Source: an uncultured Candidatus Saccharibacteria bacterium
GTDB lineage: Bacteria; Patescibacteriota; Minisyncoccia; Phycocordibacterales; UBA918
Assembly: GCA_964350735.1 (NCBI GenBank)
Contig: CAYGKO010000003.1
Location: 52,452-116,451 of the forward strand
DNA length: 64,000 nt
Direction of reading: 5' to 3'
This document shows, in pieces, positions 702 to 33,795 of this stretch. The number at the start of each line of letters is the position of its first letter. Position 1 is the first letter of the stretch. The position numbers were made by a program, and so were the translations under genes. The notes beneath the pieces are model-generated. The model was not told the DNA's origin, did not search any database, and saw only the letters and a program-made list of their open reading frames with translations.

Positions 702-1304
702 CTACAACACCTTTATATTTTTGCAATAGCTGCGGCGGTGTAGTGGTGAAAAACCGTGTTTGGCAATAGCTGCGCGGTGGGCTTTGGTGCCGTAACCTTT
801 GTGAATATGAAAATTATATGGCTTGTAAGCGGCAAGCTTAGACTGTCGCACCATGTAGCGGTCACGCGTCACTTTGGCCATCACTGACGCCAACCCAATC
901 ACGCGCTCCTTACTATCCCCTTTGATAATCGTCTCCTGATTAACAAACTCAACCGGCGCCTTCAGACCACCATCCAGCAATACCTTAGTACGATATATCG
1001 TACTATTAGTTGTGATTTTTTTGAGGGCGCGGCGCATCGCGAGCCTGATCGCTGCTGAAATCCCAATCCGGTCAATTACTTTGGCTGACACCATTGCTAC
1101 CGCGTACTCTAGCTTCCCGGCTTGCTGCAGCTCTTTCGCCCGGACAAACAACTCCTCCCGCTTCTGTTCGCTCAACTGCTTACTATCATTTACACCAGGA
1201 ATCAACTTCCAGTCAAAATTTACTGGGATTTTAAGTACCCCTACCGACACCGGACCAGCGAGAGGGCCTCGGCCGGCTTCATCAATACCAATGAGATATT
1301 TCAT
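702..1304 (-). CDS. rnhB: Ribonuclease HII
   Basis: Translation from the in-frame ATG at 1304 reads MKYLIGIDEAGRGPLAGPV..., matching the RNase HII DEAGRG catalytic N-terminus. The ORF-track start at 1457 is an upstream extension. Confidence 0.9.
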   Translation of the reverse strand: MKYLIGIDEAGRGPLAGPVSVGVLKIPVNFDWKLIPGVNDSKQLSEQKREELFVRAKELQQAGKLEYAVAMVSAKVIDRIGISAAIRLAMRRALKKITTNSTIYRTKVLLDGGLKAPVEFVNQETIIKGDSKERVIGLASVMAKVTRDRYMVRQSKLAAYKPYNFHIHKGYGTKAHRAAIAKHGFSPLHRRSYCKNIKVL

Positions 1305-1446
1305 AGTCTGATTGTACCCCACCTCACTACTTGTGTAGTGAGAAGCCGATGGCAGGTATTTTGGGTAAGACCGGCCGAGCGGCCTCGGAGCGCCCAAAAA
1401 TACGCACCATCGGCTTTGAACGGATTTTTGGTATACTACTCTCACT

Positions 1447-4400
1447 ATGTCTGACACGCCGAAACTGACTACTGACTTTGTGCATTTGCACGTGCATTCG
1501 CATTACTCCCTCCTTAATGCTGTTCCCACCCCAAAAGAGCTCGCTGCTACAGCCAAAGCCGACGGCCAAGACGCGCTGGCGATCACCGACGCTGGTGCGC
1601 TGTACGGAGCGATTGATTTCTATCAAGCCTGTCAAAAAGAAGGTATCAAGCCGATCATCGGCCTCGATGCTTTTATGGCACCCCGCACACGCCACGACCG
1701 CGACCCTATGGACAAGCCGCGGAGTCGCCTCGTCCTGCTGGCTAAAACCTTTAAAGGCTACCAAAACCTCATTATGTTGGTTACCCGTGCCAACACTGAA
1801 GGGTTTTACTATCGCCCCCGACTTGATCGTGAACTGCTCACCGAACTGCATGAAGACCTGATTTGTATCGTACCCTCTTTTGCTGGTGAACCAGCCCAAG
1901 CACTCAAGCACGGTGACACCGAAGCCGCCGGTGCTGCCCTTGATTTCTACAAACAACTCTTTAAAGACGATTGCTACCTCGAGATCAGCCACCACCCCGA
2001 GATGCTCGATCACCAAGAAAATCAAGAGCGCCTCAAGAAGCTGGCGGCGGACACCAACACTCCGCTCGTAGCGGCTCAAGATATTTATTACCTCACCAAA
2101 GACGACGCCATTGCTCGAGAAGCGATGATTAAGATCCAAAGTGGCGGCGTTGTAGACACCTCAGCCGAACGCTCCGAAGACTTCTCATTCACGACCCAGG
2201 AGCAAATGAAAGAACGGTTCGCCGATACACCAGAAGCACTTACCAATACGGTAAAAATCGCAGAGCAGTGTAACGTCGAGATTACCCTCGGCATGGAAGC
2301 GTGGAAGTTCCCGAATTACATCATTGAAAGTGGTAAAGAACCTGATGAAGAACTGCGAGATACTGCCTACGCCGGCGTGAAGTGGCGCGGACACGACATC
2401 AATGATGAGGTGGTAAAAAAGCGCCTCGACTATGAACTCGAGGTGATCAAAACTAAAGGCTACGCCAAGTATTTCTTGGTGGTAGGTGACTTGCTGCGTG
2501 AAGCTCGTGAGCGTGGCATCCTCACGACCATTCGAGGTTCGGTGGCTGGTTCGTACGCGACGTACGTGCTTGGAATTACCAACGTGGACCCCCTTGAATA
2601 CAAACTCCCTTTTGAACGATTCTTGAACCCGGAACGTCCATCAGCGCCTGATATCGATATGGACTTTGCCGATAACCGGCGTGACGAAATCATTGAGTAC
2701 GCCAAAAATAAATACGGTGAAGACAAAGTGGCTCAAATCGGCACCTTCGGAACCATGATGGCCCGCGCGGCCGTGCGTGACGTAGCGCGAGCACTCGGCC
2801 ACTCATACAGTACTGGAGACACGATCGCAAAACTCATCCCGATGGGTAGCCAAGGTTTTGCCATGACTATCGATCGAGCGCTTGAAATGGAACCTGATCT
2901 CAAAAAACTCTACAAAGCTGACAGCGAGTCGCGCGAAGTGATCGATCTCGCTAAGCGGATTGAAGGTCGGGTCCGGCACGTCGGTGTTCATGCGGCTGGT
3001 GTAGTAATAGCGCCAGAGCCACTCAATCAATACGTCCCCATCCAACTCGACTCCAAAACTGGCAAGTTCATCACTCAGTACGAAATGCATTCTGTTGGCG
3101 AAGATGGGGTTGGTCTCCTGAAGTTCGACTTTTTGGGTATTAAAAACCTCGCCATCTTAGCTGACGCGGTGAAGCGGGTGAAAGTTACGAGAAATGTTGA
3201 TGTCGATATTGAAAACATTCCGCTTGATGACGCCAAGACATTCAAGATGCTGGCTGAAGGTCAGACCATGGGACTCTTCCAGCTCAATGGCTCCGGGATG
3301 ACCTCGTTCTTAAAGCAGCTCCAACCAAGCAGCATTCACGACATCAATGCGATGGTGGCCTTGTATCGACCGGGACCAATGGAAATGATTCCAACGTATA
3401 TTGAGCGCAAACACAACCAATCCTTAATCACCTACCTTGACCCCCGCCTCGAGAAAATTCTCGATCGTTCCTACGGCGTGATCACCTACCAGGACGATGT
3501 GATGATGACCGCGATTGAACTCGCTGGCTATTCCTGGCTCGATGCCGACAAGCTGCGTAAAGCGATGGGAAAGAAAATTCCGGCAGTGATGGAAGCCGAA
3601 AAAGAAAAACTCATGCAAGGTTTCGCTGAGTACGGCAAACTCACTCCGGCACTGGCAGATAAACTCTGGAAGCTAATCGAGCCCTTTGCGGCGTACGGTT
3701 TTAATAAAGCCCACGCGGCGAGTTATGGCCGCGTCGCTTACCAAACCGCCTACATGAAGGCGAACTTCCCCGTCGAATATATGAGCGCGGTACTGACGGC
3801 AGACTCTGGTGACACCGAAAAAATCTCAGAAATTATTCACGAGTGTGACCGGATGGGTATCGAGGTATTACCCCCAGACGTCAACGAATCTTTCTCAGAC
3901 TTCACGGTGATTCCTGGTACCCAAACCATCCGCTTTGGACTCACGACGATTAAAAACTTCGGTTCTGGCATTGCTGACGCAATTATTGCTGAACGCAAAA
4001 AAGGTGGACCATTTGGTACACTGGCTGACTTCCTGACTCGTGTGCACGATAAAAATCTCAACAAGAAATCCCTCGAAGCGCTTGTCATGACTGGTGCGCT
4101 GAATAGCTTCGCTGAGCGTGGTCTGTTATACGCCAACATCGATACTATGCTTGCCTTCAACCGTGAACACGTCGCCGGCAAAGAGGCTGGTCAAGACTCG
4201 CTCTTTGGTGGTATGGAAACTACTATCAACGACCTTGTCCTTGAGAGCGCTCCTGAAGCCGACCAATCCCAAAAGCTCACTTGGGAACGAGAACTCTTGG
4301 GCGTGTATGTGTCAGGCCACCCGCTCGATGATCACCGCGAAGAATTGCAAAAAGGCGAACGGCGGATGATTGGCGACATTGTGAGTGCGGTCACAGATGG

Positions 4401-5738: not shown

Positions 5739-7508
5739 ATGAACACAAACCTAGAACACAAACGACACACCCTCGCTCACTTACTCGCTGCTGCGACCTT
5801 GGTCGAGTATCCTCATGCGAAACTCACCCTGGGGCCAGCCATCGACAACGGCTTCTACTACGACATCGACTTTTCTGCTGGTGAAGCGCCAGGTGACGGC
5901 GATCTAAAAAAGATCCAGAAACACATGAAGAAAATGCTCGGACAATGGACTAGTTTTGAACACAAGGAAGTCTCCGCTGATGAAGCTCGGGCTGTATTTG
6001 CAGACAATCAATTCAAGCTTGAACTTGTTAATGAAATTACCGAGAAAGGTGAAACTATCACTCTTTATACCGCCGGCGCTGGCACTAAAGCTGAGTTTAC
6101 TGATCTGTGCCGTGGTGGACACTCTGAGAATCCAGCTGAGGAAATAGCTACTGATGCCTTCAAGCTCGACAAAGTTGCCGGCGCCTACTGGCGCGGGAGC
6201 GAGGAGAACCCGATGCTGACCCGTATCTATGGCCTCGCCTTCGACACCAAAGAAGAGCTCGAGGTGTATGAAACGCAACTGGCCGAAGCCAAGAAGCGCG
6301 ATCATCGCAAGCTTGGTAAAGAGCTTGGTTTGTTTACGTTCTCAGAATTAGTGGGACCAGGTCTCCCGCTATGGACTCCCAAAGGCACCACCATGCGTCG
6401 TCTCATTGATGAATTTGTCACTGGTTTGCGCCGAGAGAAAGGCTATGAAGTAGTAACCATTCCCCACATCGCCAAAAAATCACTCTATGAAACGAGCGGT
6501 CACTGGAATAAATACAGTGAGGACTTATTTAAAGTCCGGGCTAAAGAAGATGACGATGCTGAAGAGTACGTACTTAAGCCAATGAACTGTCCGCATCATA
6601 CTCAAATTTTTGATGCTGAGCCGCGGTCATATCGCGATCTGCCCCAGCGCTACGCTGAAACCACTATGGTGTACCGGGCCGAGCAATCAGGTGAGCTCGC
6701 TGGATTGACCCGCGTCCTGTCTATTACGCAAGATGACGCGCACGTATTTTGTCGAGAATCACAACTGCGTGATGAGATCGAATCAATCTGGGACATCGTC
6801 AATGATTTCTACGGTGCCTTTGGTTTTGAACTCAAGGTTAGACTATCCTTCCACGATCCAGAACAAAAAGATAAATACCTCGGTGACAGCAGTATTTGGG
6901 AATCAACTGAAGGTCTTATGAAAGCAATCGCCGAGGATCGAAAAGCTGAATATTTCATCGGTATTGGCGAAGCTGCCTTTTATGCTCCCAAGCTCGATTT
7001 TATGGCGCTGGACTCGATTGGGCGCACCCATCAAGTTGCCACCATTCAACTTGACCGACTGATGCCAGAACGGTTCGGCCTTACGTGCACTAATGAACAG
7101 GGCGAGAAAGAAGGGATTGTAATGATCCACGCAGCGATTGCTGGTTCTCTGGAGCGCTTCTCAGCCGTCTTGATTGAACACCTTGGTGGCCACTTCCCGC
7201 TCTGGCTCTCGCCCGTGCAGGTCGCGGTGGTACCAGTAGCGGAGGCTCACAATGAGTTTGCTGCCGATGTGAATCGCCAACTTAAAGCGGCTGGTATCCG
7301 AACTGACTTTGACGACAGCAAAGAATCAATGGGTAAGAAAATCCGCAATGCCAAAAACGCCAAGCTCCCCTACTTCCTCGTAATCGGTGACAAAGAAGTG
7401 GAGCGCGGTGGAGTAACCCTCGAAGCACGTGATGGCAACTCCGTAGAACTCACCATTGAAGACATGATGAGTCGTCTACAAGAAGAAATTGAAACTAAGA
7501 AGCTGTAG
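5739..7508 (+). CDS. thrS: Threonyl-tRNA synthetase (589 aa, lacking the N-terminal TGS domain)
   Basis: HTLAHLLA editing-domain His motif, LKPMNCPHH, class II motifs, and an anticodon-binding C-terminus. Confidence 0.95.
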   Translation: MNTNLEHKRHTLAHLLAAATLVEYPHAKLTLGPAIDNGFYYDIDFSAGEAPGDGDLKKIQKHMKKMLGQWTSFEHKEVSADEARAVFADNQFKLELVNEITEKGETITLYTAGAGTKAEFTDLCRGGHSENPAEEIATDAFKLDKVAGAYWRGSEENPMLTRIYGLAFDTKEELEVYETQLAEAKKRDHRKLGKELGLFTFSELVGPGLPLWTPKGTTMRRLIDEFVTGLRREKGYEVVTIPHIAKKSLYETSGHWNKYSEDLFKVRAKEDDDAEEYVLKPMNCPHHTQIFDAEPRSYRDLPQRYAETTMVYRAEQSGELAGLTRVLSITQDDAHVFCRESQLRDEIESIWDIVNDFYGAFGFELKVRLSFHDPEQKDKYLGDSSIWESTEGLMKAIAEDRKAEYFIGIGEAAFYAPKLDFMALDSIGRTHQVATIQLDRLMPERFGLTCTNEQGEKEGIVMIHAAIAGSLERFSAVLIEHLGGHFPLWLSPVQVAVVPVAEAHNEFAADVNRQLKAAGIRTDFDDSKESMGKKIRNAKNAKLPYFLVIGDKEVERGGVTLEARDGNSVELTIEDMMSRLQEEIETKKL

Positions 7509-7530
7509 CAATTATGTTATTATTTTCTAT

Positions 7531-8436
7531 ATGAAACATACACATTTAGCGATCCTAGGTATCCTACTCGCCAGTATCGTTATTGGACTCAGTTATTGCA
7601 CTCAATACTACAAAAGTTCTGCCTCTAATCTGTCGCAAGAGGTTAACACTCTAGAAAAACGTAATATCGTACTAACCTCTGAGCTTGATACGGCGGTGAC
7701 CTTGAACACTAAATTACAAAACAAACTTGATTTAATGACCACAAACGATAGTGCTAATCGTAAATTCTATGAACTGACCGACGGATCGGAAAGATTTGGA
7801 TCTTCATTCGACATTTACACATTCAAAACTGCTGACCACATAGGTACTGTCGAGCACATATGTGAAAACCCCGAAGCGATCATTGAAAAAAATAGTAACA
7901 AATATTGTCAAGCTGATAGCTTTTTCTTACTTAATGTAGATGAGAAAATGAGCATTATCGACTCCTTTACATACACTGAACAAGGGGACGAGATCGGGCT
8001 ATCAATACCCACGTTTAACGAAGGGACAGAGCTGATTGCCACTAGCACCGATCGGTCTTCAGGAAAATTATTGGTAAGTACAAACCCACACTACTGTCTT
8101 TGGGAAGATGGCATGTGTTTCAGCCCTAATACGTTATCCTATATAATAGATATACCAGATGGAAATATAATAAAAGTTCAATTTCAAACTGAACTCTACT
8201 CTCAAGCTCGTTTACACTGGAATGAAGCTGGGACTAAAGCATTTTATCCAATTAGTTGTCCGGCAGGTTGTCCGACGTACTTATTATATGCCTTAGATAT
8301 CAACAAAAATCGAGGTGAAGCACTCATAGATAGAGAAGATTTTGGTGATATATTCTATAAAACGGCCACTTGGATAGACAATGACACAATTGAAGTCATA
8401 AACGACTCAGGTGAGTCGACCGAACTATCGTTCTAA
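7531..8436 (+). CDS. Hypothetical membrane-anchored protein (N-terminal TM helix, coiled coil, Cys-containing extracytoplasmic domain); AT-rich (about 35% GC)
   Basis: First ATG at 7531 (ORF-track start is TTG at 7489). GC is clearly lower than the flanking genes. Followed by a terminator. Confidence 0.6.
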   Translation: MKHTHLAILGILLASIVIGLSYCTQYYKSSASNLSQEVNTLEKRNIVLTSELDTAVTLNTKLQNKLDLMTTNDSANRKFYELTDGSERFGSSFDIYTFKTADHIGTVEHICENPEAIIEKNSNKYCQADSFFLLNVDEKMSIIDSFTYTEQGDEIGLSIPTFNEGTELIATSTDRSSGKLLVSTNPHYCLWEDGMCFSPNTLSYIIDIPDGNIIKVQFQTELYSQARLHWNEAGTKAFYPISCPAGCPTYLLYALDINKNRGEALIDREDFGDIFYKTATWIDNDTIEVINDSGESTELSF

Positions 8437-8442
8437 CGACAC

Positions 8443-8474
8443 AAAAAAGCCCTGGCATTTGCCAGGGCTTTTTT
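8443..8474. terminator. Bidirectional intrinsic terminator between convergent genes
   Basis: aaaaaa, gccctggc, attt, gccagggc, tttttt. Confidence 0.8.
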
Positions 8475-8493
8475 GTGCTGCAGGGAGACAGCT

Positions 8494-9255
8494 TTATGCC
8501 AGCGCTTTAATCGCTTTCATAATCGCTACCTTCACAGCCGCTTCTTCTGATGGATAGGTACCATCGATCGTTTGGGTTAGAGCCTCAATCGCAGCTTGTA
8601 CTTTACCGTGTGGAGTTTGATCAGCTACTTCTTTCAACATGTCTGAAAGAATGACTGATTCTCCATTTTGATGTCGGTACAACGCATCAAAGTCGGCTGA
8701 AGCACCAGCGAGGGCAATCATTGGACGCTGTCCAATAAGTTGATACGCTGCTACCACATTTCCTTCAATGATCGCTTCAGCGAGTGAGTTAGTTACTGGA
8801 GCCAGTTCAAACTCAGACCGCACAGCCTCTTTCTTAGCTTCAGAAACTACAATTGTTTCTTCGACTACAAGTGGTTGTGCCTTGAGCTCTTCTCGCTTTG
8901 CTGTCAGCTCTTCCATTCGATCACAGTTGAGGACTACCCAACCGTCTTCAGTTGGATAGGTCACCTTAGCTTCAGTAATCACCTTTTCCAAGAATGTCCG
9001 TCGGTTTAGATCCTTATGACATACATTAATGAAGTGCTGCATCGCATCACCTGAGATAAGCACTCGGTGTGTATGTGCTAAGTTTTCAAGTTCTTGCATT
9101 TCCTGACTTAATTCAGTCACTTCAGGATCAACTAATTCTGGCACTTCAGTAGCTACTACCGCTGCGTAGCCAACAGCTGGATTACCCGTTGGTAAGTTAC
9201 TCGGTGCAACCGCAGATGCGATTGTATTAGTAACAGTTTCCACTGTTTCTACCAC
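8494..9255 (-). CDS. Hypothetical 253-aa cytoplasmic protein (GTG start), overlapping the upstream surface-protein gene by 7 nt
   Basis: ORF with no TM segments. The start codon at 9253-9255 is GTG. The first in-frame ATG is about 52 codons downstream. Arrangement suggests translational coupling. Confidence 0.45.
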   Translation of the reverse strand: MVETVETVTNTIASAVAPSNLPTGNPAVGYAAVVATEVPELVDPEVTELSQEMQELENLAHTHRVLISGDAMQHFINVCHKDLNRRTFLEKVITEAKVTYPTEDGWVVLNCDRMEELTAKREELKAQPLVVEETIVVSEAKKEAVRSEFELAPVTNSLAEAIIEGNVVAAYQLIGQRPMIALAGASADFDALYRHQNGESVILSDMLKEVADQTPHGKVQAAIEALTQTIDGTYPSEEAAVKVAIMKAIKALA

Positions 9256-11852
9256 CGGTGATTCTGTCCGCTGTACTTCTGGCTCAGCATCTGTAGTTTT
9301 TTTTTGTAGATCTCATCTTCAGTTGTTACTACACCAGCTACTACAGAAGTACGATTCTTGTAGATGAATACGTATGCTACGAAGAGTGCCCAGAGCGTAA
9401 GAAGTGCGTAGAAGATGAATGTCAGAATTGGACCAGCTTCAAATCCAGTGTATGGCACTTGTGTCAGTGCAATACCAGCCACCCGTGGTTCTTGTGATCG
9501 GTTCTCGAGCACAACCACATCTTCGTCTTCCACTTCAATATTTACTGTACATTCTCGGTCTCGACTACCTCGTTCAACTACTAAAGTGTATTCAGTATCT
9601 TCAGTTGGTCGAACTCGGATACTTCCATCATCTACATCATCATCGTCATCAGTAGAGAAGATTTCTCGATCACCCTTATCTCCTTCGAAGATAGTAAGTT
9701 CTCGTCCTCGACTCGTTTCCCATGAGAGTGTGATTTGTTCACCTGCCTTGATCGTTCGATCAGATGCGGTGAATTCACAACGTGGTCGACTTGATCCTCC
9801 ACCACCTCCACCACCTCGATTTTCTACTGTAATTGTTTCAGTACATGTCACTGGAGTTTCTCCAGCTGCGATAGCAGTAAGTGTGTAGGTGATGTCACCA
9901 ATTGTAGAAGGAGCATTTACAGTGATATCACTATCAGCTGGGAGATTACTTCCGACTCCTTGGTCAATTGACACGCTCTCTGCATTTGTCGTATCCCACC
10001 GGAGGGTGAATGAACCATTTTCAAGTACGGTAGATGGAGTAGCTTGGAAGCTTTCACACACGATGTTGCTACCACTTACTCCTGGCACCACCACGTTAGT
10101 TGGGTCAGTGTCCGTTACTGTCGCACCATCTACAGCTGAATCTCCCGTCACATTTGCCACATTAGTGAATGAAGCTTGTACGTTAGACGTGGCACACGTA
10201 TAGGTATCTGAAGCCCCTTGCGCAAGGCTACCAATTGTCTTGTTACACGCTGCTTCAAGTGGGTCGGTTACTACTACGTTTACCAAATTTTCATTACCAG
10301 TGTTCGTCACTACGATCTCAAAGTTAGCAATGCCACCAGCTGATACTGTCTGTGTATCATCCTTATCAATAGCATCACGCTTGATGATTTCAATTGCTGG
10401 ATTAGTTTGTGTAACAACCGGTGTTACCACAACCGGTGTCGTACATACTGCGTCTGCCTGACCATCTTTACGAGCAGTTAGTGTATAGGTCGTATCGCCA
10501 AGCGCTGGTGTCTCAACAAGCGTAGTTTTATTAGCGTCTGTGCTAATAACCGTAGCTCCTTTAGCAAAGGTAACTGAATCAGCGTTAGTCGTTGTCCAGT
10601 TAAAATTTACCGTTCCTCCTAGAGTAAGTGACTGTGAACCTTTTGGATTCAAATCACAAGTCGGCGCATTAACTGCAACTGCTGTAGTCGTAAGTGTCGC
10701 CGGACACGTAGCAGTCTTTCCAGCCCCATTGTTTACGGTTACGGTGTAGGTTTTGCTGCCAAGATCAGACTGACTTACTGCCTTACTGCCAGCGTTGTTC
10801 GCAACTGTAATCACACCCACACCATTGTTAGCAGAAGCTGATGCAATATTTGATCCACTAACAGTCAGTGTTGATGCCGTATTTACAGTGACTGAACTTG
10901 GAGAGAATGAAGCAGTACAGATTGGATCTGGCACTACTACTGGTGCCGCTGTCGTCGTGAGGGTTGCTGTACAAGACCCAGGCTTACCTTGGTTGTTAAG
11001 TACTGCAATGGTGTAGGTTTTAGTTCCAACTGTTGTCTGGGTTACAGACTTACTACCAGCGTTGTTCGCAATTGTTACCGCTCCAACACTATTATTCACT
11101 GAAGCCGAAGCTAGGTTTGAACCATTGATTTGGAGTGTAGCCGGTGTATTTACCTGAACTGAAGCCGGATTAAATAGCGCCGTACATACTGGATCAGGAT
11201 CTGGTGCTGGTGTAGGTTTTGCATTTACTGTAATTTTCACATTACAAGTCCGCTCCACACCATCAGCGTTTTTCACTGTACCAGTGAATACACGATTTGT
11301 ACCAGTTACGGTCACAGTAGTACTAAGGGGCTGGTTATTTATACCAATCGCTCCCTTACCACGATCCAATTTCGCAGAAACAGCATTGGTTCCCTTAAGC
11401 GTAAACGTAACTTGGTCACCCGCAGTGATAGTCAAGTTAGACTGACCATTCACTTTAAGGACACAAGATGGAATTGGGGCTGATACAACTCCAGGGTCAT
11501 CACGATCAGGCTCTGGGTTAGTCGGAGTACTTGGCTCGTCATCACGACCGCTGCCGCTACCACAACCACCGCAACCATTTCCACCTCCAGAGTTACCAGA
11601 GCCACCATTTGATGTACCCCCGGTACCAAAACCGCCGTCTCCACCAGCACCTTCGCCACCGCCAGAACCAGAACCTCCTCCAGAGCCGCCAGAGCCACCG
11701 TCAGAGTCTCCGCCAGAACCAAAAGCTTCAGCTTGAATTTCTTCGCTTGAGAACTCAAAAAATGATTGTACTTGTGGGAGTGCAATATAAGAAACCACTA
11801 CCGCAACTGCGATTGGGAAAATTAATTTTTTGAATGGAATATTTTTTTTCAT
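9249..11852 (-). CDS. Large secreted surface protein (868 aa) with N-terminal signal/TM, Gly/Ser-rich linker, tandem Ig-like/DUF11-like repeats and a C-terminal VPYTG + hydrophobic + basic sorting-like signal
   Basis: ATG at 11852 (MKKNIPFKKLIFPIAVAVVV). Two near-identical ~90-aa domains (CTATLTTTA...SKTYT). C-terminus ...LTQVPYTGFEAGPILTFIFYALLTLWALFVAYVFIYKNR. Confidence 0.75.
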   Translation of the reverse strand: MKKNIPFKKLIFPIAVAVVVSYIALPQVQSFFEFSSEEIQAEAFGSGGDSDGGSGGSGGGSGSGGGEGAGGDGGFGTGGTSNGGSGNSGGGNGCGGCGSGSGRDDEPSTPTNPEPDRDDPGVVSAPIPSCVLKVNGQSNLTITAGDQVTFTLKGTNAVSAKLDRGKGAIGINNQPLSTTVTVTGTNRVFTGTVKNADGVERTCNVKITVNAKPTPAPDPDPVCTALFNPASVQVNTPATLQINGSNLASASVNNSVGAVTIANNAGSKSVTQTTVGTKTYTIAVLNNQGKPGSCTATLTTTAAPVVVPDPICTASFSPSSVTVNTASTLTVSGSNIASASANNGVGVITVANNAGSKAVSQSDLGSKTYTVTVNNGAGKTATCPATLTTTAVAVNAPTCDLNPKGSQSLTLGGTVNFNWTTTNADSVTFAKGATVISTDANKTTLVETPALGDTTYTLTARKDGQADAVCTTPVVVTPVVTQTNPAIEIIKRDAIDKDDTQTVSAGGIANFEIVVTNTGNENLVNVVVTDPLEAACNKTIGSLAQGASDTYTCATSNVQASFTNVANVTGDSAVDGATVTDTDPTNVVVPGVSGSNIVCESFQATPSTVLENGSFTLRWDTTNAESVSIDQGVGSNLPADSDITVNAPSTIGDITYTLTAIAAGETPVTCTETITVENRGGGGGGGSSRPRCEFTASDRTIKAGEQITLSWETSRGRELTIFEGDKGDREIFSTDDDDDVDDGSIRVRPTEDTEYTLVVERGSRDRECTVNIEVEDEDVVVLENRSQEPRVAGIALTQVPYTGFEAGPILTFIFYALLTLWALFVAYVFIYKNRTSVVAGVVTTEDEIYKKKLQMLSQKYSGQNHRW

Positions 11853-11968
11853 AATAAATTTGATAAGTAAGTAATGTGTTACCTCTGTATATTCCCACCT
11901 ACACCAGTACGCGAGAATATAAAAGGTGAGAAGCCGATCACAAAGTGACCGCCTTCCCAAATCTTGAA

Positions 11969-12523
11969 TCAGGAGCGCGGGTATGCATCACGACCCGGGT
12001 CGCAGACGCACGCCAAGGCGCTGTCGAGCGGCACCAAGGTGATGTTGTTACATACCGCCGGGACATAAACTTCCCAACGGTGATTAACATTATCCCCTTG
12101 TGGGACCGTGACCCACCATTTCCGACAGATGAACAGCTTGCGCGTCCATTCGTCGGTGACGACAGTCGGATTGATGGAAATGAACCCATCACCCGAAATC
12201 ATTGCACCTGGCAGTATCTTTCCGCGATACTGTGTATCCAGGTTGATGAGCTCGTCGCCGTCAGGTCGAGTCAGCAGAGCGTTTCGGATCATGATCCGCT
12301 CTCGCTGAGAAAGGTTCAGTCGCCCAATTGCCAGAGCTTCTCTGAAACCATCCTTAACGAAACGCTCTTGCAAGGATGCTCCACCCCCGTCTGACCAACG
12401 AAGAGTTCCGTCAGCCATGAGGGTTCCGTTCTGGAAGACCGGACCCTTAGGAGAATCTGCACCAACAGGAAGCGGAGCAATAAAGCTCGCAGCCATACCA
12501 GCACAGAATGAACGCCTGTTCAT
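11969..12523 (-). CDS. Hypothetical secreted protein with twin-arginine-like signal (MNRRSFCAGMAASFIAPLPVGA); part of the GC-rich island
   Basis: ATG at 12523 with AAGGA SD. About 60% GC, against about 50% in neighbouring genes. Confidence 0.6.
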   Translation of the reverse strand: MNRRSFCAGMAASFIAPLPVGADSPKGPVFQNGTLMADGTLRWSDGGGASLQERFVKDGFREALAIGRLNLSQRERIMIRNALLTRPDGDELINLDTQYRGKILPGAMISGDGFISINPTVVTDEWTRKLFICRKWWVTVPQGDNVNHRWEVYVPAVCNNITLVPLDSALACVCDPGRDAYPRS

Positions 12524-12526
12524 TGG

Positions 12527-13039
12527 CTATCCTTTCGGTTTGACCATCCAAATGGCCGCTGCGTTATCCTTCGAGTTAGCGAAGGCTGGATCATCATGCC
12601 TCGTCTCGATTGAGCCATGACAGTTGACCGTTGGCCCTCCATTTGCTGGAAAAGCTTTCTGGAGACCGATCGCTGGCCAAGAAGACGGTGCTTTGACACA
12701 GATGTCGCGACCCGGCGCCTTCATGCTGTCGGGCGCCTCGAAGTACCAGGTGCCGTTGTGCTCAAGCTCGAGCGTAACGACGTGTGTTTCGCCAGTCGGG
12801 TTGCCGCTGAGGTAGCCGAGAAAAGTGAACGTACCGGTAGCCGGCTTGATCTCACCCTTCTTCAGAGCTTTCTCGAACGCGACAATCATTTGGCCGTCAT
12901 CGAAGTTATATGCGCGGGCGATTTCCCACACCTTCTCAGATTCTTCAACGGCGACCAAACCGGTCCACCATTTCCCGTCAGCCAAAGCTGGGGTAACAAA
13001 GCAAAGCGCCATAACAGCGCTCAAAAGAATGCGAAGCAT
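12527..13039 (-). CDS. Hypothetical secreted protein (signal peptide MLRILLSAVMALCFVTPALA); part of the GC-rich island
   Basis: ATG at 13039 with GGAGA SD. The ORF-track start at 13075 is TTG. Confidence 0.6.
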   Translation of the reverse strand: MLRILLSAVMALCFVTPALADGKWWTGLVAVEESEKVWEIARAYNFDDGQMIVAFEKALKKGEIKPATGTFTFLGYLSGNPTGETHVVTLELEHNGTWYFEAPDSMKAPGRDICVKAPSSWPAIGLQKAFPANGGPTVNCHGSIETRHDDPAFANSKDNAAAIWMVKPKG

Positions 13040-13288
13040 GTCGCTCTCCAATTCTGATTCAATTTCAAAGTTCAATTACTCCCTCTACCATCCACGGCGA
13101 TAAGGTTGAACTTACTCGTGCGATGGCAGCGAGCTTGGTTGCAAGAAACGGACGACGCTCATAGGAGCGCGTTTCTTAGGACCAAGCTTGCTAGGAATAT
13201 GTTGTGAGATACTGCGACTTCCTCAATATGATGAGGACTCGCTTCGTTCATCTGTGAACTACTTTACTCTACTATTGTAGCATATCTA

Positions 13289-13431
13289 TTGACTTTTGTC
13301 AATATAATTGTCTAGTTATTTATTGGTCCAGCAATTTCTTCTAAAGAGGTAGAAAATTGGTAACTTGTACCCTGTGGGTATAAATTCAATATAGTCGTTG
13401 CACTCCTTATTTCATTCAACTTTTGTCAATA
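13289..13431. repeat. Two copies of the 13-mer ACTTTTGTCAATA (13292-13304 and 13419-13431) in an AT-rich intergenic region; the first copy is within the palindrome TTGACttttGTCAA
   Basis: Direct repeats read from the sequence. Lies upstream of the island genes and downstream of the sortase gene. Confidence 0.4.
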
Positions 13432-13482
13432 CTATGGTGCAACTGAATAATGGATCCGAGCGATCCTCAGAGCCATTATTAC

Positions 13483-14211
13483 TTATAGTTGTACGGTCTT
13501 TACTAATGTCGCTTCAAGGATAAACCGGTCATCTGTCGAGCCGAAGCTATCGCACGTTGCGAGCGTAAGCTTAGCCTTATCATCGCTCATTGGCACCGTC
13601 ACTTCAGAGGCTTTGGCTTCGTAGACGCGATCTACGCGGTAGATATATTCAGTATCGATAGACTGCACGCGCACGGTATCACCCCACGAGAGCTTCTGGA
13701 TACCGTTAAAGGCCTGAAAATTCTTATTGAGTACGTTCGGCAAGTAACTAGAATGGCCTAGAATAAGGATGTTTCCGGTATTTTTGAAGTCGGCTGAATC
13801 AGGATGACGTACTACTCCACCTAAAAGCGCCGCATCAAGGTCGGCAACAGCTCGAGAAGTTGGGTTTTTTACCACTACTTCCCGGCCACCAAGGGAGTCA
13901 AAAATGATCTTGGTCGGCAAGGCAGCCGCATCTAGTACCTCAGCTTTTGACTCAGGTTCAATCACTGCTAGTGGCGCCCGCTCTCGCACTTCTGCAACTG
14001 CTTCGACTACAGTGTCTGACACCCCAGCTACCAGCTCATCTACTATTGTCACCGCCGAATCAGAGGATTTTTCTACCGGCTCTGGAATGAAATCTACTAC
14101 AAACAGAACGAAATACGTGAACAGTACCGTACCAAAAAAGACCCCAAAAAAAGCGAGCTTTTGGCGCTTGATTTGCTCATATACGTCCCAAAAGGTGTCG
14201 GATAGGTTCAT
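13483..14211 (-). CDS. Sortase-family transpeptidase (N-terminal TM anchor)
   Basis: Conserved His (ILILGHSSY), catalytic Cys in a TLxTC motif (KLTLATCDSFG), and a downstream Arg. Length and topology are typical of a sortase. Confidence 0.7.
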   Translation of the reverse strand: MNLSDTFWDVYEQIKRQKLAFFGVFFGTVLFTYFVLFVVDFIPEPVEKSSDSAVTIVDELVAGVSDTVVEAVAEVRERAPLAVIEPESKAEVLDAAALPTKIIFDSLGGREVVVKNPTSRAVADLDAALLGGVVRHPDSADFKNTGNILILGHSSYLPNVLNKNFQAFNGIQKLSWGDTVRVQSIDTEYIYRVDRVYEAKASEVTVPMSDDKAKLTLATCDSFGSTDDRFILEATLVKTVQL

Positions 14212-14434
14212 AACAATAAGGATATTAGTGATCGATATAATACACTATATTTTTATAAAGTCAATACTGATGCTTGACATTACTAAGTAATATGATATGA
14301 TATTGGAGTCAAATTACTCGAGCGTTCGAGTTTGGTTCTCACTTGCATATCCTGTTCTCCCCCACTCATTAGTGAGTGGTGATTTCTCGGTATGTAGTGA
14401 TAGCTGACATTTAAATGTAACTATCCTTTATTGT

Positions 14435-15481
14435 ATGAATAATGTAACTCAAGAATCAAAAGATTCAGTCATGAAGACCATGGCAGTAGTGGGATTTGTT
14501 GCAGTCATCATCTTTGCAGTATGGCTCGCAGTCCAAATCGTACAGCTCATCCCTGGCGCCTTCACCTCACTCGCCTCTATTGCAGATGGTGTCTACGGCA
14601 ATCGTCCGGTCGCTGAATTTACAGTCGCTTCAAATGAAAGTGTGGTAAACACTGGCGAAGACTTCACACTTTCGTGGACAAACGTAAACCAAAACGGTAC
14701 GTACTCATTTATGTACAAATGTACTGATGGTGTATCAGTTGATATCCGAAACAATGCTGGGGAAATCGTCAGCATTGCTTGCGACACACCACTTGGTCTT
14801 GGTACTGAGGTAACATCACTAGAAATTGCAGCTGCTTCCGAAAAGAAGCGGTTTACAGACGTGGGTTATACCGTCGCCTTCCGCCCAAATGGAGCGGCAG
14901 ATGTAGCCGCTTCACAAAGTGGTAAGTTCACAGTAGTGAACCCCAGTATTCCACAAAGTGTCGCTGTAGCAGATGATACAGACGAATCAGAAGGTGAAGT
15001 AGCTGGTGAAACAACCTCTACTGAATCAGAAGAAGATACTGTTGATCCGGCTCCAGTCGTATCTACTCCAGCTCCCACAGTGATCGAAACACCCATCATT
15101 GCTATCCCAACTTCAGATCCCAACGGATTTACTGACTTGGAAGTGCGATTCCTCGGCGTTGGTACCATGGACAATAATAACCGTTTCACCCAAACCGCAA
15201 CTATCGACAACGATCGTCGGGGAGCGTATCAGTTTGAAGTGAAGAACACTGGTACTAAAACTTCTACTGCTTGGGAGTATGCTGCCATTCTTACATCAGG
15301 GACTGAATACGAATCAGGGCGACAAGATCCACTCAAGCCAAACGAACGATCAGTAATCACTCTTGGTTTTGATGCAGTTGGTGAAACTGGCGTCCAATTC
15401 TTCGGAGCTACCGTTTCAGGCGGAAGTGACCGAAACCGAAACAACAACAGCTTCACCTGGGCAGTTGAAGTAACGAACTAA
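14435..15481 (+). CDS. Hypothetical membrane-anchored extracytoplasmic protein (348 aa) with acidic Thr/Ser linker
   Basis: ORF with a TM segment (MAVVGFVAVIIFAVWLAV). Followed by a strong terminator. Alternative ATG at 14471. Confidence 0.6.
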   Translation: MNNVTQESKDSVMKTMAVVGFVAVIIFAVWLAVQIVQLIPGAFTSLASIADGVYGNRPVAEFTVASNESVVNTGEDFTLSWTNVNQNGTYSFMYKCTDGVSVDIRNNAGEIVSIACDTPLGLGTEVTSLEIAAASEKKRFTDVGYTVAFRPNGAADVAASQSGKFTVVNPSIPQSVAVADDTDESEGEVAGETTSTESEEDTVDPAPVVSTPAPTVIETPIIAIPTSDPNGFTDLEVRFLGVGTMDNNNRFTQTATIDNDRRGAYQFEVKNTGTKTSTAWEYAAILTSGTEYESGRQDPLKPNERSVITLGFDAVGETGVQFFGATVSGGSDRNRNNNSFTWAVEVTN

Positions 15482-15512
15482 CGTAGAAACTAAAATCTCG
15501 AACGCTACATTA

Positions 15513-15552
15513 AAAACCAGCCGGCGCCCTAGGGCGCCGGCTGGTTTTTTTA
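15513..15552. terminator. Bidirectional intrinsic terminator (13-bp GC stem flanked by an A run and a T run)
   Basis: aaaaa, ccagccggcgccc, ta, gggcgccggctgg, ttttttt. Confidence 0.85.
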
Positions 15553-23856: not shown

Positions 23857-23893
23857 CCCGTTCGTTTCACTCACTCCACTCCTCTCGTATCGG

Positions 23894-23966
23894 AGCCACC
23901 TGTCAGATTCGAACTGACGACCTGCGGTTTACAAAACCGATGCTCTACCAACTGAGCTAAGGTGGC
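23894..23966 (-). tRNA. tRNA-Thr (anticodon UGU), discriminator U, CCA not encoded
   Basis: Manual cloverleaf: acceptor GCCACCT/AGGTGGC, D arm GCTC/GAGC, anticodon stem TCGGT/ACCGC with loop TTTGTAA, T arm GTCAG-TTCGAAT-CTGAC. Confidence 0.85.
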
Positions 23967-24016
23967 GGTAATTTGGTCGAGGTATTATTGCAATTTCTGA
24001 CGAAAAAGCAAGTTAC

Positions 24017-24442
24017 TTACCCCTTGAGACTTTTCTCACGTAGAGATACTTTTTCTGCATCACTAAGTGAAGTTGCTTCTTTATGCTCTGCGATTGAATC
24101 GAGATGAGAATTTTCTTTTTCTGATTTTATAGACTTAACCACTGAACGATTTCGTCTTTGCAAAAGAAGGATTTGGCTTTGGCCAAATTGCAAAACAGCT
24201 AAGCAGGCAGCTAGTACAGTATGAATAACAAAGTGAATCACAATACGCACCGTACCAACTCCCAGCCACGTTCCGATTTTAGTACAAAGCAACCAAAATG
24301 CACTCACAATACGATCAAGAAATGAGCGAAATTTTAATAGAAATAAGCGACTGCCACGCACGTGCTCTGCATGAAACAATAAACCAAGCGCTGCTAATAT
24401 AGCAGCGCTTGATCCAGCAATAATGAGACTAATCTCTAACAT
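24017..24442 (-). CDS. Hypothetical small membrane protein (141 aa), AT-rich, downstream of tsf
   Basis: ORF with 3-4 predicted TM helices. Occupies the position where pyrH often sits. Confidence 0.5.
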   Translation of the reverse strand: MLEISLIIAGSSAAILAALGLLFHAEHVRGSRLFLLKFRSFLDRIVSAFWLLCTKIGTWLGVGTVRIVIHFVIHTVLAACLAVLQFGQSQILLLQRRNRSVVKSIKSEKENSHLDSIAEHKEATSLSDAEKVSLREKSLKG

Positions 24443-24446
24443 CCTT

Positions 24447-25031
24447 CTATTTTATACTCAAACGTTCGATTGCTACAACCGATACGTTTTCACCAAACTT
24501 CTGGACTGCTCCTGCCACCATTTCTCCAATAGTTGTATCCGGATTCTTGATGAATGGTTGTTCCAGTAAGATCTGTTCTTTGAAATATGAACTCAGCTTC
24601 CCTTCCATGATCTTTTCCTGCATTTCAGCTGGCTTATCTGCCATTTCAGCAGCAAATACTTCTTTAGCTTTAGTGATTGCAGTCTCGTCAACTTCGTCTC
24701 GTGCAATATATTTTGGCGCCTGCGCTGCAACGTGCATTGCGATGTCTCGTGCAATTGCTACAAACTCCTCATTTTTTGATACGAAGTCAGTCTCACAAGC
24801 GAGGTGAACCATCGCTGCTACTTCGTTTGTATTGTGGGTGTACACACCAATCGCTCCAGCACCAAACTCACGATCTGATTTTTTATCAGCTGCTTCACTT
24901 CGCTTTTTCTTCAGAATAATAAGTGCCTTGTCCATATCACCAGCGGCTTCTTCTAAGGACTTCTTACACTGCATCACAGAAATACCTGTTTTGTCTCGCA
25001 ATTCTTTAATTTGGGCTGAAGTAATCTCCAT
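24447..25031 (-). CDS. tsf: Elongation factor Ts (short form)
   Basis: N-terminal UBA-like region MEITSAQIKELRDKTGISVMQCKKSL. Confidence 0.9.
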   Translation of the reverse strand: MEITSAQIKELRDKTGISVMQCKKSLEEAAGDMDKALIILKKKRSEAADKKSDREFGAGAIGVYTHNTNEVAAMVHLACETDFVSKNEEFVAIARDIAMHVAAQAPKYIARDEVDETAITKAKEVFAAEMADKPAEMQEKIMEGKLSSYFKEQILLEQPFIKNPDTTIGEMVAGAVQKFGENVSVVAIERLSIK

Positions 25032-25074
25032 ACAATAAAATAACTAAATTACTAAATCAGTGCTACCACTGAAA

Positions 25075-25839
25075 TTATGCTCGTCGTGCTTCAGGTCGTC
25101 GGGTTCGAGCTGGTCGTTCAACTGGCTTTGGTACAAACTCAGTTTTACCTGCCATCAAGGCAGCTGTCAGTTCTTCGAGTACCAGACTGATACTAGATTG
25201 TAGCGCGTCGTTTACCACAACAGGGTGTGTCACCAAACTGGTGTTGTTATCAGAACTCATGATTCCAATTACTGGGATACCAATTTCATTTGCCTCTGTC
25301 ACTGCGATTGAATCATGACGCGGGTCAACTACCACCATCAGATTAGGAGTTTTATCTAGTGTTTTGATACCACCAAAATTGAAATTTAATTTCTCGATTT
25401 CACGGCCAATAACTACGCGTTCTTTTTTAATGTACTTTCGCTCTAACTCACCACTTTCACCTTCTACGGTTAGTTTCTGGAGTCGATCAATTCGTTTTTT
25501 GATCTCTGAAAAATTTGTAAGTGCTCCACCGATCCAGCGGTTTGTAACGTATGGCATTTCTGCCTTTTCTGCTGCTGCTTTTACCAGCTTTGCGGCTTCG
25601 TCTTTAGTAGAAACAAATAGTACAGTTTTACCATCTTTGCCGGCAGTATGTAGTACCTGCTTTGCATCATCGATAAGTGTCGAAACTTTTTCAAGATCAA
25701 AAATATCAGTTCCCTGCTTGTTACCAAAGAGGTATGGCTTCACTGTTGGGTGCCGTCGACTCTTTGAAAACCCAAAGTGCGAACCAGCAGAAAAGAGGCG
25801 CTCAATGAGTGATTGGTTGTTTTGTGTATCAGTTGACAT
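25075..25839 (-). CDS. rpsB: 30S ribosomal protein S2 with basic C-terminal tail
   Basis: S2 motifs (GSHFGF, TNRWIGGALTNF). ATG at 25839. Confidence 0.9.
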   Translation of the reverse strand: MSTDTQNNQSLIERLFSAGSHFGFSKSRRHPTVKPYLFGNKQGTDIFDLEKVSTLIDDAKQVLHTAGKDGKTVLFVSTKDEAAKLVKAAAEKAEMPYVTNRWIGGALTNFSEIKKRIDRLQKLTVEGESGELERKYIKKERVVIGREIEKLNFNFGGIKTLDKTPNLMVVVDPRHDSIAVTEANEIGIPVIGIMSSDNNTSLVTHPVVVNDALQSSISLVLEELTAALMAGKTEFVPKPVERPARTRRPEARRA

Positions 25840-25925
25840 ATATAAGATAAAAACGCGATGTAGCGCGCTAACGGGTAGAACAGTACCATAGCCGCCAGCT
25901 ATGTGCAATAGAAAATAAGACTGTA

Positions 25926-26912
25926 TTAGAGGTCTAAATCAGCTTCTGCTTGCGAGAGAGCGGTAAAAATGTCATCAAGCTGACCTCCCATCACACCATC
26001 GATATTGTGCCAGCTCTCTTTGATCCTGTGGTCAGTGATTCGATTTTGAGGAAAATTGTAGGTTCGAATTTTTTCTGACCGATCCCCTGTTCCAATCTGG
26101 TTCTTGCGAACCGCAGCGTGTTTCCGAGCCTCTTCTTCTTCATGCATCACTTCCAACTTTGCAATCAGCATCGTCATTGCTTTTTCACGGTTCTTAAGCT
26201 GTGACCGATCAGACTCACAACGCACATCAACACCAGTTGGACGGTGTATTACTCGAACTGCAGTTTCGACCTTGTTTACGTTTTGACCACCAGCTCCACC
26301 AGATCGAGAAAACTCCATATCAATATCACCAGGGCTGATTTCAATAGTCGGTTTTTTTCGCATTGGTAGCACCGCCACAGTAACAGTCGAAGTGTGAATT
26401 CTCCCTTGTTTTTCTGTCGCTGGGATACGCTGTACTCGATGCACGCCCGTTTCGTACTTAAAGGCATCATAGACAGCTGGACTTAAAATTTCAAAAGAAG
26501 CATCTTTATACCCCACGCCTGCAGACGCTACTGAAACATTGTTCCGGGTGGTTTGCCACTCTTTTACTTCTGCATATTTAAGATACATCTGAGCTAACTC
26601 CTCGGCAAAAAGTGCCGCTTCGTCACCTCCGGCCCCTGCTCGTACCTCAAGCATAACCCCGTATGGTTTTGCTTCTTCCTCTCGACTCGCTTCAATAATC
26701 CGATCCATTTCGGCAAACTGATCTTCTAGCTGTGAAGTAAGCTCAGCAATCTCATCTTCGGCAAGTACAGCCATCTCAGGATCAGTTGCCGCCAAGGCTT
26801 GTGCTTCTTCTAATTGAGTCACGACCGTGTCGTATTGTGTCATTAAAAACTGTGTTTTTTGGTGCTCACGAAATGATTGAAGTTTTTCGGCTGTCTGGTC
26901 TGTTTCTTCCAT
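25926..26912 (-). CDS. prfA: Peptide chain release factor 1
   Basis: PAT tripeptide ([14 protein letters not shown]) and GGQ motif. ATG at 26912. Confidence 0.9.
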
Positions 26913-26982
26913 AGGTATATTTATACTATAGCAGCAATACAAAAGCCGCTGTTTTGTCTAGGCAAAACAGCGGCTTTTGTCG

Positions 26983-27246
26983 CTACGCTTTTTTCTTCCC
27001 AGCTTTTGAGGCTCGTGCCTTGAATCGTTCTACTCGTCCAGCAGTATCCATTACCTTTTCTTGACCAGTATAGAACGGGTGTGATGCACTTGAAACATCC
27101 ACACGCTTCATTGGGTATTCAGTACCGTCTGTCCACTTATCAGTCTCTGTCGTTGCAACAGTAGAGCCGATCAAAAATCGCTCCTCACTTGAGTCATCAT
27201 GGAAGATAACGAGACGGTAGTTTTTTGGGTGAATATCAGTTTTCAT
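26983..27246 (-). CDS. rpmE: 50S ribosomal protein L31 (type B, no zinc ribbon)
   Basis: MKTDIHPK ... HPFYTG. Confidence 0.85.
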
Positions 27247-27332
27247 ATTGTTTGTGGCCACATTTATTCAGCGACCGGTATATTTAGTAGTGCGGGAACT
27301 ATATCAGAATATTTGTAAACCGCAATAGATCT

Positions 27333-28694: not shown

Positions 28695-28781
28695 AGCAAT
28701 AGTATACCAATGAATTGGCAACATGAAAAAGGACGACACATCCTTGAGATGTGTCGTCCTTTCCCTGTATCGAGTTTAGAA

Positions 28782-29432
28782 TTACTCAGCTGGAGTTTCA
28801 GCTGCTCCTTCATTTTTACCCTTCCCTTTTTCTTCAACTTCAATTGTATCCATATCCGGAGCTGCTGGAGCTTCTTCCGGCTCCTCTTCTCGGGCTGCAG
28901 AGACAGCTACCACAACGTCCTCTGGTTCTGCAGAAAGTGTAACGTCAGCAGCTACTGCAAGGTCTTTGATCAAAATCTGAGCATCTTCTGTTTCGAGGAC
29001 TGAGAGGTCAACTTCAATGCTAGACGGTAGCGCACTTGGTCGACATGTCACTTCAACATCAAGCATAACTTTGTTCACCGATGCGCCTGATTTTTCTACT
29101 GGCGCTTCACCAATAAACTCAAGTGGCACGTTAGTTGTTAGTTCCTTTCCACGCTCAATAGCATAGAAGTCGACATGATTTACTCCACCCTTAGTCACAT
29201 CAAATGATGCATCTTGTACGAGCACTTCAATTTCTTCTTCCAATCCCGTAAGAGTAATGATGGTTGACTCTCCTGCAGTTTGCATGAGTTTATCAAACGT
29301 AATTTTATCTACAGCGATAGAAATAGGCTCTTGTTTTGGACCATATACAATACCAGGAAGATTCCCGGCAGTTCGAACTGCTACGGCAGACTCTTTGGCA
29401 TCACGTTTGGTTACAGCTAAAGTTGTGTTCAT
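28782..29432 (-). CDS. rplY: 50S ribosomal protein L25 / general stress protein Ctc with acidic C-terminal extension
   Basis: L25 beta-barrel N-terminal region. ATG at 29432. Confidence 0.8.
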   Translation of the reverse strand: MNTTLAVTKRDAKESAVAVRTAGNLPGIVYGPKQEPISIAVDKITFDKLMQTAGESTIITLTGLEEEIEVLVQDASFDVTKGGVNHVDFYAIERGKELTTNVPLEFIGEAPVEKSGASVNKVMLDVEVTCRPSALPSSIEVDLSVLETEDAQILIKDLAVAADVTLSAEPEDVVVAVSAAREEEPEEAPAAPDMDTIEVEEKGKGKNEGAAETPAE

Positions 29433-29498
29433 ATCATTTATATTTATGGCGATTACCATAGCACACTTTGGGGAAAGCTCAATGAGCGAACGAGTACG

Positions 29499-30521: not shown

Positions 30522-30535
30522 CTTCGGGCGCAAAC

Positions 30536-30570: not shown

Positions 30571-30582
30571 ATTTAAAACTCA

Positions 30583-32179: not shown

Positions 32180-32183
32180 ACTA

Positions 32184-33785: not shown

Positions 33786-33795
33786 AATCTAGGAC

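Follow-up and report, generated by a model that had tools for sequence, protein, structure and literature searches.

Recombination hot spots in bacterial chromosomes are fixed sites between conserved genes at which unrelated accessory cargo, largely of unknown function and of deviating composition, is present in some lineages and absent from others. Acquired islands are usually AT-richer than their host. Integron platforms (Pc promoter, attI, attC) combine a resident strong promoter with interchangeable short open reading frames (ORFs) and a conserved imperfect palindrome, and in Gram-positive sortase–substrate clusters a sortase gene adjoins the gene for a large, repeat-rich protein that ends in an xPxTG motif, a transmembrane segment and a basic tail. 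A locus with likenesses to all three lies in a 64,000-nucleotide stretch (the window) of contig CAYGKO010000003.1 from an uncultured Candidatus Saccharibacteria bacterium. Here a gene pair, ORF2 and ORF1, is flanked by a sortase gene upstream and an 867-residue surface-protein gene downstream, and an original prediction made from the letters alone had marked the pair as a GC-rich island. We give a probability of roughly 0.6 to the reading that the island is a functional two-gene operon of co-inherited exported proteins, housed in a cargo slot between sortase and surface-protein genes; as part of that reading, the high GC content of the cargo is maintained and is not a relict. The elements of the locus, in the order of transcription, are the following.

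13483-14211, minus strand: sortase gene, 242 residues (Pfam PF04203, E = 9.2e-17); conserved upstream anchor of the slot
13274-13302, minus strand: putative promoter, near-consensus sigma-70 (TTGACA, 17 nucleotides, TACAAT, with TG; 11 of 12 matches)
13040-13265, minus strand: structured 5′ leader of the pair, with a long hairpin (inverted repeat) at 13128-13192
12527-13039, minus strand: ORF2, 170 residues, the 5′ gene of the pair; begins MLRILLSAVMALCFVTPALA, with cleavage before DG
11969-12523, minus strand: ORF1, 184 residues; begins MNRRSFCAGMAASFIAPLPVGA, with cleavage before DS; twin-arginine-type signal MNRRSF
11928-11958, minus strand: terminator-like GC-rich hairpin just 3′ of the ORF1 stop, GGGAAGGCGGTCAC-TTTG-TGATCGGCTTCTC, then ACCTTTTATATT
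11881-11932, minus strand: conserved covarying hairpin of about 50 nucleotides ahead of the surface-protein gene, in its 5′ untranslated region (UTR); bounds the slot downstream
9249-11852, minus strand: surface-protein gene, 867 residues; Gly/Cys-rich N-terminal region, DUF11/DUF7507 repeats, then QVPYTGF, a transmembrane segment and a basic C-terminus

The fixed site, the presence and absence of cargo and its unrelated, compositionally deviating genes are those of a hot spot. In contrast to hot-spot islets, however, the cargo is GC-richer (39 of 44 ORFs), mobility genes are absent, the protein families are known only from this slot and the point of insertion is within a 5′ UTR, flanked by promoter and conserved hairpin. 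The integron likeness extends to one locus (L006) in which a cargo gene stands between two hairpin copies, but none of the loci showed an IntI-type recombinase; in the window the neighbours are the sortase gene, a gene for a 348-residue membrane protein and gyrB. Unlike attC, the slot hairpin has a conserved sequence, stands in empty sites too and carries an invariant G.U pair, and the cargo has its own leader and terminator. Sortase–substrate clusters differ from this locus in the motif, which is VPYTG here, in a sortase without a match to an NCBIfam class, and in the pair itself, neither member of which has a sorting signal.

The integrity of the pair is supported from two sides. The Logan assembly of run ERR3534985, a separate assembly possibly built from the deposited assembly's own reads, holds a 9,798-nucleotide contig that is 100% identical to window positions 5744-15541 and spans both island edges. 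A 1,078-nucleotide ENA contig from another sample (L096), with 84.6% DNA identity over window positions 12722-11656, runs, in the window's order, from the last part of ORF2 through ORF1 and the intergenic hairpin into the surface gene. More than ten unrelated samples repeat the succession of sortase, pair, hairpin and surface gene. Between the window and L096, the mature region of ORF1 has a synonymous divergence (dS) of 0.32 and a nonsynonymous divergence (dN) of 0.017, giving a dN/dS of 0.054, and the C-terminal 64 codons of ORF2 give 0.058; dS against the L096 lineage spans 0.3-1.2. Differences in ORF1 are distributed 16/9/42 over the three codon positions, and its amino-acid changes fall mostly in the signal peptide, where the arginine pair is kept (DDRRAFL in L096). 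ORF1 and ORF2 are real genes under constraint, with a dN/dS of about 0.05. A metagenome scan with the window's sortase yielded no very close relative, the best full-length match being 57% identical and the best partial match (L171) 70%.

With either ORF as query, word-indexed searches of 5.8 billion clusters recovered nothing beyond the proteins themselves, whereas an exhaustive phmmer run against 1.84 billion representative proteins brought up seven distant homologues of ORF1 (28-43% identity), to which a word-indexed profile search added three. Genomic context was recovered for all ORF1 homologues except one on a 664-nucleotide contig, leaving ten usable lineages, and in each of these an ORF2 homologue is adjacent. 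The ORF2 family comprises nine homologues (24-57% identity), each adjoining an ORF1 homologue. Wherever the contig is long enough a sortase gene lies just upstream of the pair (L002, L008/L009, L012, L014 and L095), its product 33-62% identical among orthologues (L002, L008, L012, L014, L095), and wherever the contig continues the Gly/Cys-rich surface-protein gene comes next downstream. Farther downstream, thrS (L006, L007, L012) and dnaE (L006) follow, both of which are also in the window. The ORF1 alignment contains invariant Gly, Trp and Pro residues and three Cys residues in the mature domain, and the ORF2 alignment likewise has Gly, Trp, Pro and Cys columns without variation. The structure model of ORF1 is confident though built from just eight sequences; the single-sequence model of ORF2 is unusable (pLDDT 39.7). 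Neither protein matched Pfam, NCBIfam, PADLOC or PHROGs, and sequence-profile searches of the PDB gave nothing significant, with a faint hint of SHIRT or LPXTG proteins for ORF2 (E = 0.058 and 0.12). Plasmid, phage and IMG/VR searches for homologues were all negative, and no homologue outside the slot was found in these or in the protein and cluster collections above. By these searches, ORF1 and ORF2 are two new orphan protein families, confined to Paceibacteria-type Patescibacteria and, there, to this slot. Pairwise identities of ORF1 and of ORF2 group the loci identically, which suggests that the pair is co-inherited.

The slot, defined from the sortase stop to the conserved hairpin 5′ of the VPYTG surface-protein gene, was surveyed by scanning one genome per species with a sortase alignment, which returned 80 loci. 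Almost all of them are from Patescibacteria (Paceibacteria, Kaiserbacteria and Nomurabacteria labels), with a best sortase identity to the window of 57%. Four Patescibacteria-type sortase contigs (L035, L042, L049, L076) sit in metagenome-assembled genomes labelled Acidimicrobiales, Azotimanducaceae, Patiriisocius and Balneolia, and are probably mis-binned. Slot length is bimodal, at 80-256 nucleotides in 26 loci and 768-4129 nucleotides in 25, the window's slot measuring 1551 nucleotides; a second, independent set of 80 metagenome contigs, in which one sequence is present a few times over, gave 81-177 nucleotides in 9 and 779-2519 nucleotides in 18. The slot is empty in about half of the related species. 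An empty slot consists of a consensus promoter, CTTGACAAA-N17-TAnAAT, immediately 3′ of the sortase stop, and a short leader behind it. Those occupied loci that were read have this type of promoter too, then leader, cargo, terminator-like hairpin and conserved hairpin; the cargo therefore lies in a stretch that would, in its absence, be the 5′ UTR of the surface-protein gene. The pair itself is rare, an ORF1 homologue being present in only 1 of the 80 representative genomes and weak there (L035); many of the 80 carry different GC-rich small ORFs at the same position. This cargo can be sorted into ten or more unrelated families, which have hydrophobic signals at the N-terminus and in some cases a lipobox or an RR motif, and none of ten other cargo proteins searched against Pfam had a domain. 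Leaders of empty slots (for example L058, L068, L081 and L085) repeatedly show two GTTCTC-like motifs around a small stem, which may be a second regulatory element. Full-text literature searches show nothing on the slot, the hairpin or the protein families.

High GC content is a property of the slot's cargo across the clade. The pair reaches 62% GC in L002, L003 and L005 (GC content at third codon positions, GC3, 0.70-0.77) against 47-52% in the flanks, 58-59% against 51-52% in L006, 57-62% in L010, and 59-63% against 45-47% in L012 and L014; cargo GC3 in relatives extends up to 0.70-0.84. In an annotation-free profile of 85 loci the GC excess is maximal 400-600 nucleotides past the sortase stop, where 32-36% of loci exceed +8 points, compared with 0-4% at non-slot positions. 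When loci carrying the pair are left out, an excess of 6 points over the locus GC is shown by 57% of ORFs of up to 350 residues in the slot and by 5% of those elsewhere (Fisher p = 2e-23), and for an excess of 10 points the fractions are one third and 0.3%. The 44 slot sense ORFs, taken with no pre-selection on GC, lie on average 8.8 points (s.d. 5.7) above the rest of their locus, and the window's pair lies 6.7 and 7.9 points above its own. Most occupied slots among the 80 metagenome contigs show the excess as well. The GC of the cargo partly follows that of the host (slope 0.62 ± 0.25).

Because the same excess is found in every homologous locus and across the clade, it is not due to chance. 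It is retained in cargo families whose members share only 23-67% identity. The pair-bearing lineages (L002, L003, L005, L006, L010, L012, L014) share only 24-59% protein identity, so that their synonymous sites are saturated; a one-off import of ancient date should have equilibrated. Since the families recur at the slot in deeply diverged lineages, are GC-rich in all of them and have no homologues outside, we favour maintenance of the high cargo GC over a relict state, with the same confidence as the operon reading to which it belongs.

Within the window, the original prediction had put positions 12000-12700 at 60-62% GC in a genome of about 50%. The measured values are 53.5% and a window mean of 46.3% (s.d. 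3.3% for 700-bp windows); what stands is the ranking, as the two ORFs (54.6% and 54.7%, the latter ORF2) are first and second in GC among 39 genes, some 8 points above the window mean. The flanking genes have 46.0% and 48.0% GC, and the flanking intergenic DNA, predicted to lie under 35%, is indeed AT-rich at 34-39%; the leader of the pair (46.5%) and the promoter region (34%) are unremarkable. GC3 is 0.562 in ORF1 and 0.622 in ORF2 against a gene mean of 0.40, an excess of +0.16 to +0.22, and GC at second codon positions (GC2) is 0.46-0.49, raised through composition. At the 700-bp scale the excess is about 2.2 s.d., in the top 2%, and is shared with positions 1241-2240, 39651-40440 and 56351-57720. 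Native genes are themselves uneven in GC3: the replication and aminoacyl-tRNA synthetase genes rnhB, dnaE, thrS, gyrB, pheS and pheT have 0.47-0.57 (window 1-23500 versus 24000-39500), with dnaE (0.565) and rnhB (0.536) near the pair. Expression-linked codon preference was considered as a cause of the pair's high GC3 and ruled out, because highly expressed genes have low GC3 here: the translation and glycolysis genes tsf, rpsB, the L25 gene, prfA and the GAPDH gene reach only 0.29-0.37.

The hairpin at 11881-11932, between the ORF1 stop and the surface-gene start, is the most conserved DNA among homologous loci. In an alignment of 26 loci it has 13 base pairs, 96.7% of cells are paired, 5 pairs have changed on both sides and one G.U is invariant; because of this G.U, the pattern fits an RNA of the sense strand. 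A covariance model scored 73.2 bits in the window. At E ≤ 0.01 it matched 54 of 90 sources, and at E ≤ 0.1 it matched 57; a weak antisense hit over L050's own copy aside, all hits share the sortase strand and lie downstream of the sortase. The hairpin was found nowhere else in the 1.4 Mb scanned, and it was replicated in 28 of 82 further contigs. An extension of the basal stem, pairing ACCUUU in the 5′ flank with the surface-gene Shine–Dalgarno sequence AGAGGU, is only partly supported. There is usually one hairpin per locus, at the downstream edge of the slot. Two copies are present in L006 (1319-1371 and 2101-2151), where the two genes of the pair have changed places and the ORF2-like one stands between the copies, and in L094 (12096-12148 and 15250-15302); these double hairpins may be traces of cassette insertion or duplication. 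Having no Rfam match, the element is a new candidate cis-regulatory RNA motif.

The two ORFs lie on the same strand, with 3 nucleotides between the ORF2 stop and the ORF1 ATG, and each is preceded by a purine-rich, Shine–Dalgarno-like sequence (GGAGAG and AAGGA). The length of ORF2 is counted from its ATG; the mechanical ORF list starts it at TTG 13075 instead. The promoter at 13274-13302 probably drives the pair. A 20-nucleotide direct repeat (85% identity, copies 127 nucleotides apart at 13292-13311 and 13419-13438) includes the TTGACAAAAGT −35 region, and a good −10 is present only at the ORF2-proximal copy; the other copy, at the slot's upstream edge, may be what is left of a duplicated promoter. 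The leader of the pair has a minimum free energy of −77.4 kcal/mol (z = −5.16 versus shuffles), and its 3′ portion is similar to the leader in locus L003. Rfam gave zero matches in or around the island, leader included. The terminator-like hairpin at 11928-11958 was read from the sequence and was not called in a motif scan; clearer hairpins of this kind lie 3′ of the ORF1 homologues in L002, L004, L005, L010 and L012.

Both ORFs carry the secretion signals and ribosome-binding sites that had been proposed for them. In the n-region of ORF1, two arginines precede x-F (RRSF in the window), and a hydrophobic stretch leads on to a VGA/D cleavage-type site (the slash marks cleavage), as in the twin-arginine translocation (Tat) signal peptides described by TIGR01409 and PF10518. 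The arginine pair is present in 9 of 12 ORF1-family sequences (the window, P0003-P0006, P0008, P0011, P0012 and P0014) and absent from P0007 and P0009, the twelve including P0013, whose n-region was not read. In contrast to canonical Tat signals, the window's ORF1 stays below both curated models, with no Pfam hit at E ≤ 1 (PF10518) and no TIGR01409 hit, and only one of eight ORF1 relatives matches TIGR01409 (E = 0.064). The twin-arginine-like n-region claimed for ORF1 is thus present as a motif but does not reach the level of the models. Its supposed oddity within the candidate phyla radiation (CPR) loses force, because TatA and TatC have been reported in Paceibacteria (PMC9166423), so that a Tat-type signal is not anomalous in itself. 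Neither protein was found by tblastn or phmmer in the 64-kb window, with Escherichia coli and Bacillus subtilis sequences as queries, a search that says little of the genome. ORF2 of the window has, by eye, a Sec-type ALA/DG cleavage site and no lipobox, and lipoboxes were seen in its homologues in L002 (LSGC), L005 (LVAC), L006 (VAAC), L010 (IGAC) and L014 (PTAC). ORF1 is inferred to be exported by Tat and/or Sec.

In the operon reading, the pair would be transcribed from the consensus promoter at 13302-13274 through the structured leader, and its products would be exported via Tat and/or Sec, with ORF2 a predicted lipoprotein in several relatives. At the cell envelope, beside a sortase-anchored adhesin, they would form a lineage-specific surface or host-interaction accessory. 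The GC content of the cargo could be kept high by GC-biased gene conversion at a recombination hot spot, by selection or by an unsampled GC-rich reservoir.

Several points weigh against this reading. Promoter, operon and export route are read from sequence, and with no domain, fold or named homologue found for the pair, its putative function is deduced from signals and neighbourhood; the identical Logan contig may share its reads with the deposited assembly. In the window alone the GC deviation is modest, the pair lying marginally outside the native range set by genes such as dnaE. By sortase the window groups with L012 and L014, by cargo with L002, L003 and L005; as the two groupings do not match completely, the cassette has probably moved laterally between lineages to some extent. 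The variability of the slot and the GC3 excess are what foreign origin would predict, and the slope of cargo on host GC also fits partly ameliorated imports. An import of the cargo from higher-GC donors outside the CPR, such as host bacteria, with incomplete amelioration at a permissive integration site, is nevertheless the less probable account, and we hold it unlikely. It would explain the 8 GC points and the GC3 surplus of the pair over the host, the still higher GC3 of its relatives' cargo, the differing occupancy among species and a slope below 1; diderm bacteria commonly have signal peptides of the RR and lipobox types, and general reports describe genomic islands and gene transfer as frequent in Patescibacteria (PMC12455944). 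Against it stand the lack of any homologue outside the slot among 1.84 billion representatives or 5.8 billion clusters, the lack of Pfam domains in all ten other cargo proteins, the sister lineage with the same layout at a dS of 0.3-1.2, and the occurrence of GC-rich families at the same slot in lineages sharing 23-59% identity, whose synonymous sites should have equilibrated. The island showed neither an integrase nor a tRNA close by nor convincing direct repeats at its flanks; the only tRNA is at 23892-23966, and repeat or att-like matches are short and probably due to chance. The original prediction had offered recent transfer from a higher-GC donor or a chimeric assembly join as causes, and the close homologues found at the same locus in sister CPR genomes count against both. 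The island it proposed finds support in the variable slot, empty in 26 loci and occupied in 25, whereas the presence of these genes at this place in the 84.6% identical relative, their constraint and the missing outside homologues speak against a recent import.

A chimeric join has a negligible probability: the compositional step speaks for it and nothing else does, and the junctions are crossed identically in the separate 9.8-kb contig, spanned from ORF2 through ORF1 and hairpin to the surface gene in L096, and present in more than ten samples. That there is no island at all, the GC excess being ordinary gene-to-gene variation from amino-acid content and codon usage, is very improbable. The GC3 of dnaE and rnhB, the three other equally GC-rich 700-bp regions and the raised GC2 of the pair would fit, but the two ORFs take the first two of 39 ranks, and the excess recurs in every homologue and in unrelated slot cargo, against 5% of other small ORFs. 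A polymorphic effector and partner module swapped among lineages, with a secreted toxin beside a lipoprotein immunity or chaperone partner, seems rather improbable, even with the strict two-gene pairing and matching identity groupings, the small Cys-containing exported protein next to a lipoprotein-type partner, the many unrelated small secreted families in a variable slot and the fast divergence between distant lineages. More speculatively, and at present improbably, the locus might be a dedicated cassette-exchange platform of Paceibacteria-type CPR bacteria, in which promoter and hairpin bracket swappable genes for small secreted effectors beside the sortase-anchored adhesin. The cassettes would circulate only inside the clade, with their GC content actively maintained by GC-biased gene conversion at a recombination hot spot or by selection; if true, this would be the reverse of what acquired DNA, which is usually AT-rich, tends to show.

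With the worry of mis-assembly or contamination removed for the pair, the operon reading implies that deviating composition in a CPR genome can go with old age, constraint and restriction to a clade. The succession of sortase, promoter, cargo, hairpin and VPYTG surface protein makes the locus easily recognised, and it holds lineage-specific, putatively exported proteins of episymbiotic ultra-small bacteria, which are candidates for host recognition or attachment. With its unrelated GC-rich cargo the locus is a small natural setting in which to weigh GC-biased gene conversion against selection in bacteria, and the analysis yields two new protein families together with the RNA motif.

The placement of the island between the sortase and its candidate substrate, as originally proposed, is borne out by Pfam and by the C-terminal QVPYTGF motif. 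The window's sortase has no match at E ≤ 1e-10 among the NCBIfam class models. The 867-residue protein matches PF24346 (4.6e-7) and PF01345 (2.9e-4), its C-terminal sorting motif is conserved between the window, L012 and L016, and it is a candidate sortase substrate. ORF1 (C-terminus DPGRDAYPRS) and ORF2 (IWMVKPKG) lack an LPXTG-like motif with hydrophobic segment and basic tail, and because neither has a sorting signal they are not sortase substrates. A 253-residue protein encoded 3′ of the surface gene (window 8494-9255, minus strand) resembles the C-terminal domain (...AEAIVTGNVVAAYQ...AVKMAIMKAVKA) of the longest post-slot ORF in L015, L023, L029, L030 and L036; its separate gene may reflect a gene split or fusion, or an artefact of crude ORF calls.

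Elsewhere in the window, a 208-residue protein (30583-31209, minus strand) starts MKFLINTKKGFTLLELLVVMAIIGILAVV, by eye a type IV prepilin-like N-terminal motif. Two giant adjacent ORFs at 39711-48953 and 48962-59167, both on the minus strand and encoding 3,080 and 3,401 residues, take up about 30% of the window, and its GC-richest 700-bp stretch (about 56481) lies inside one of them.

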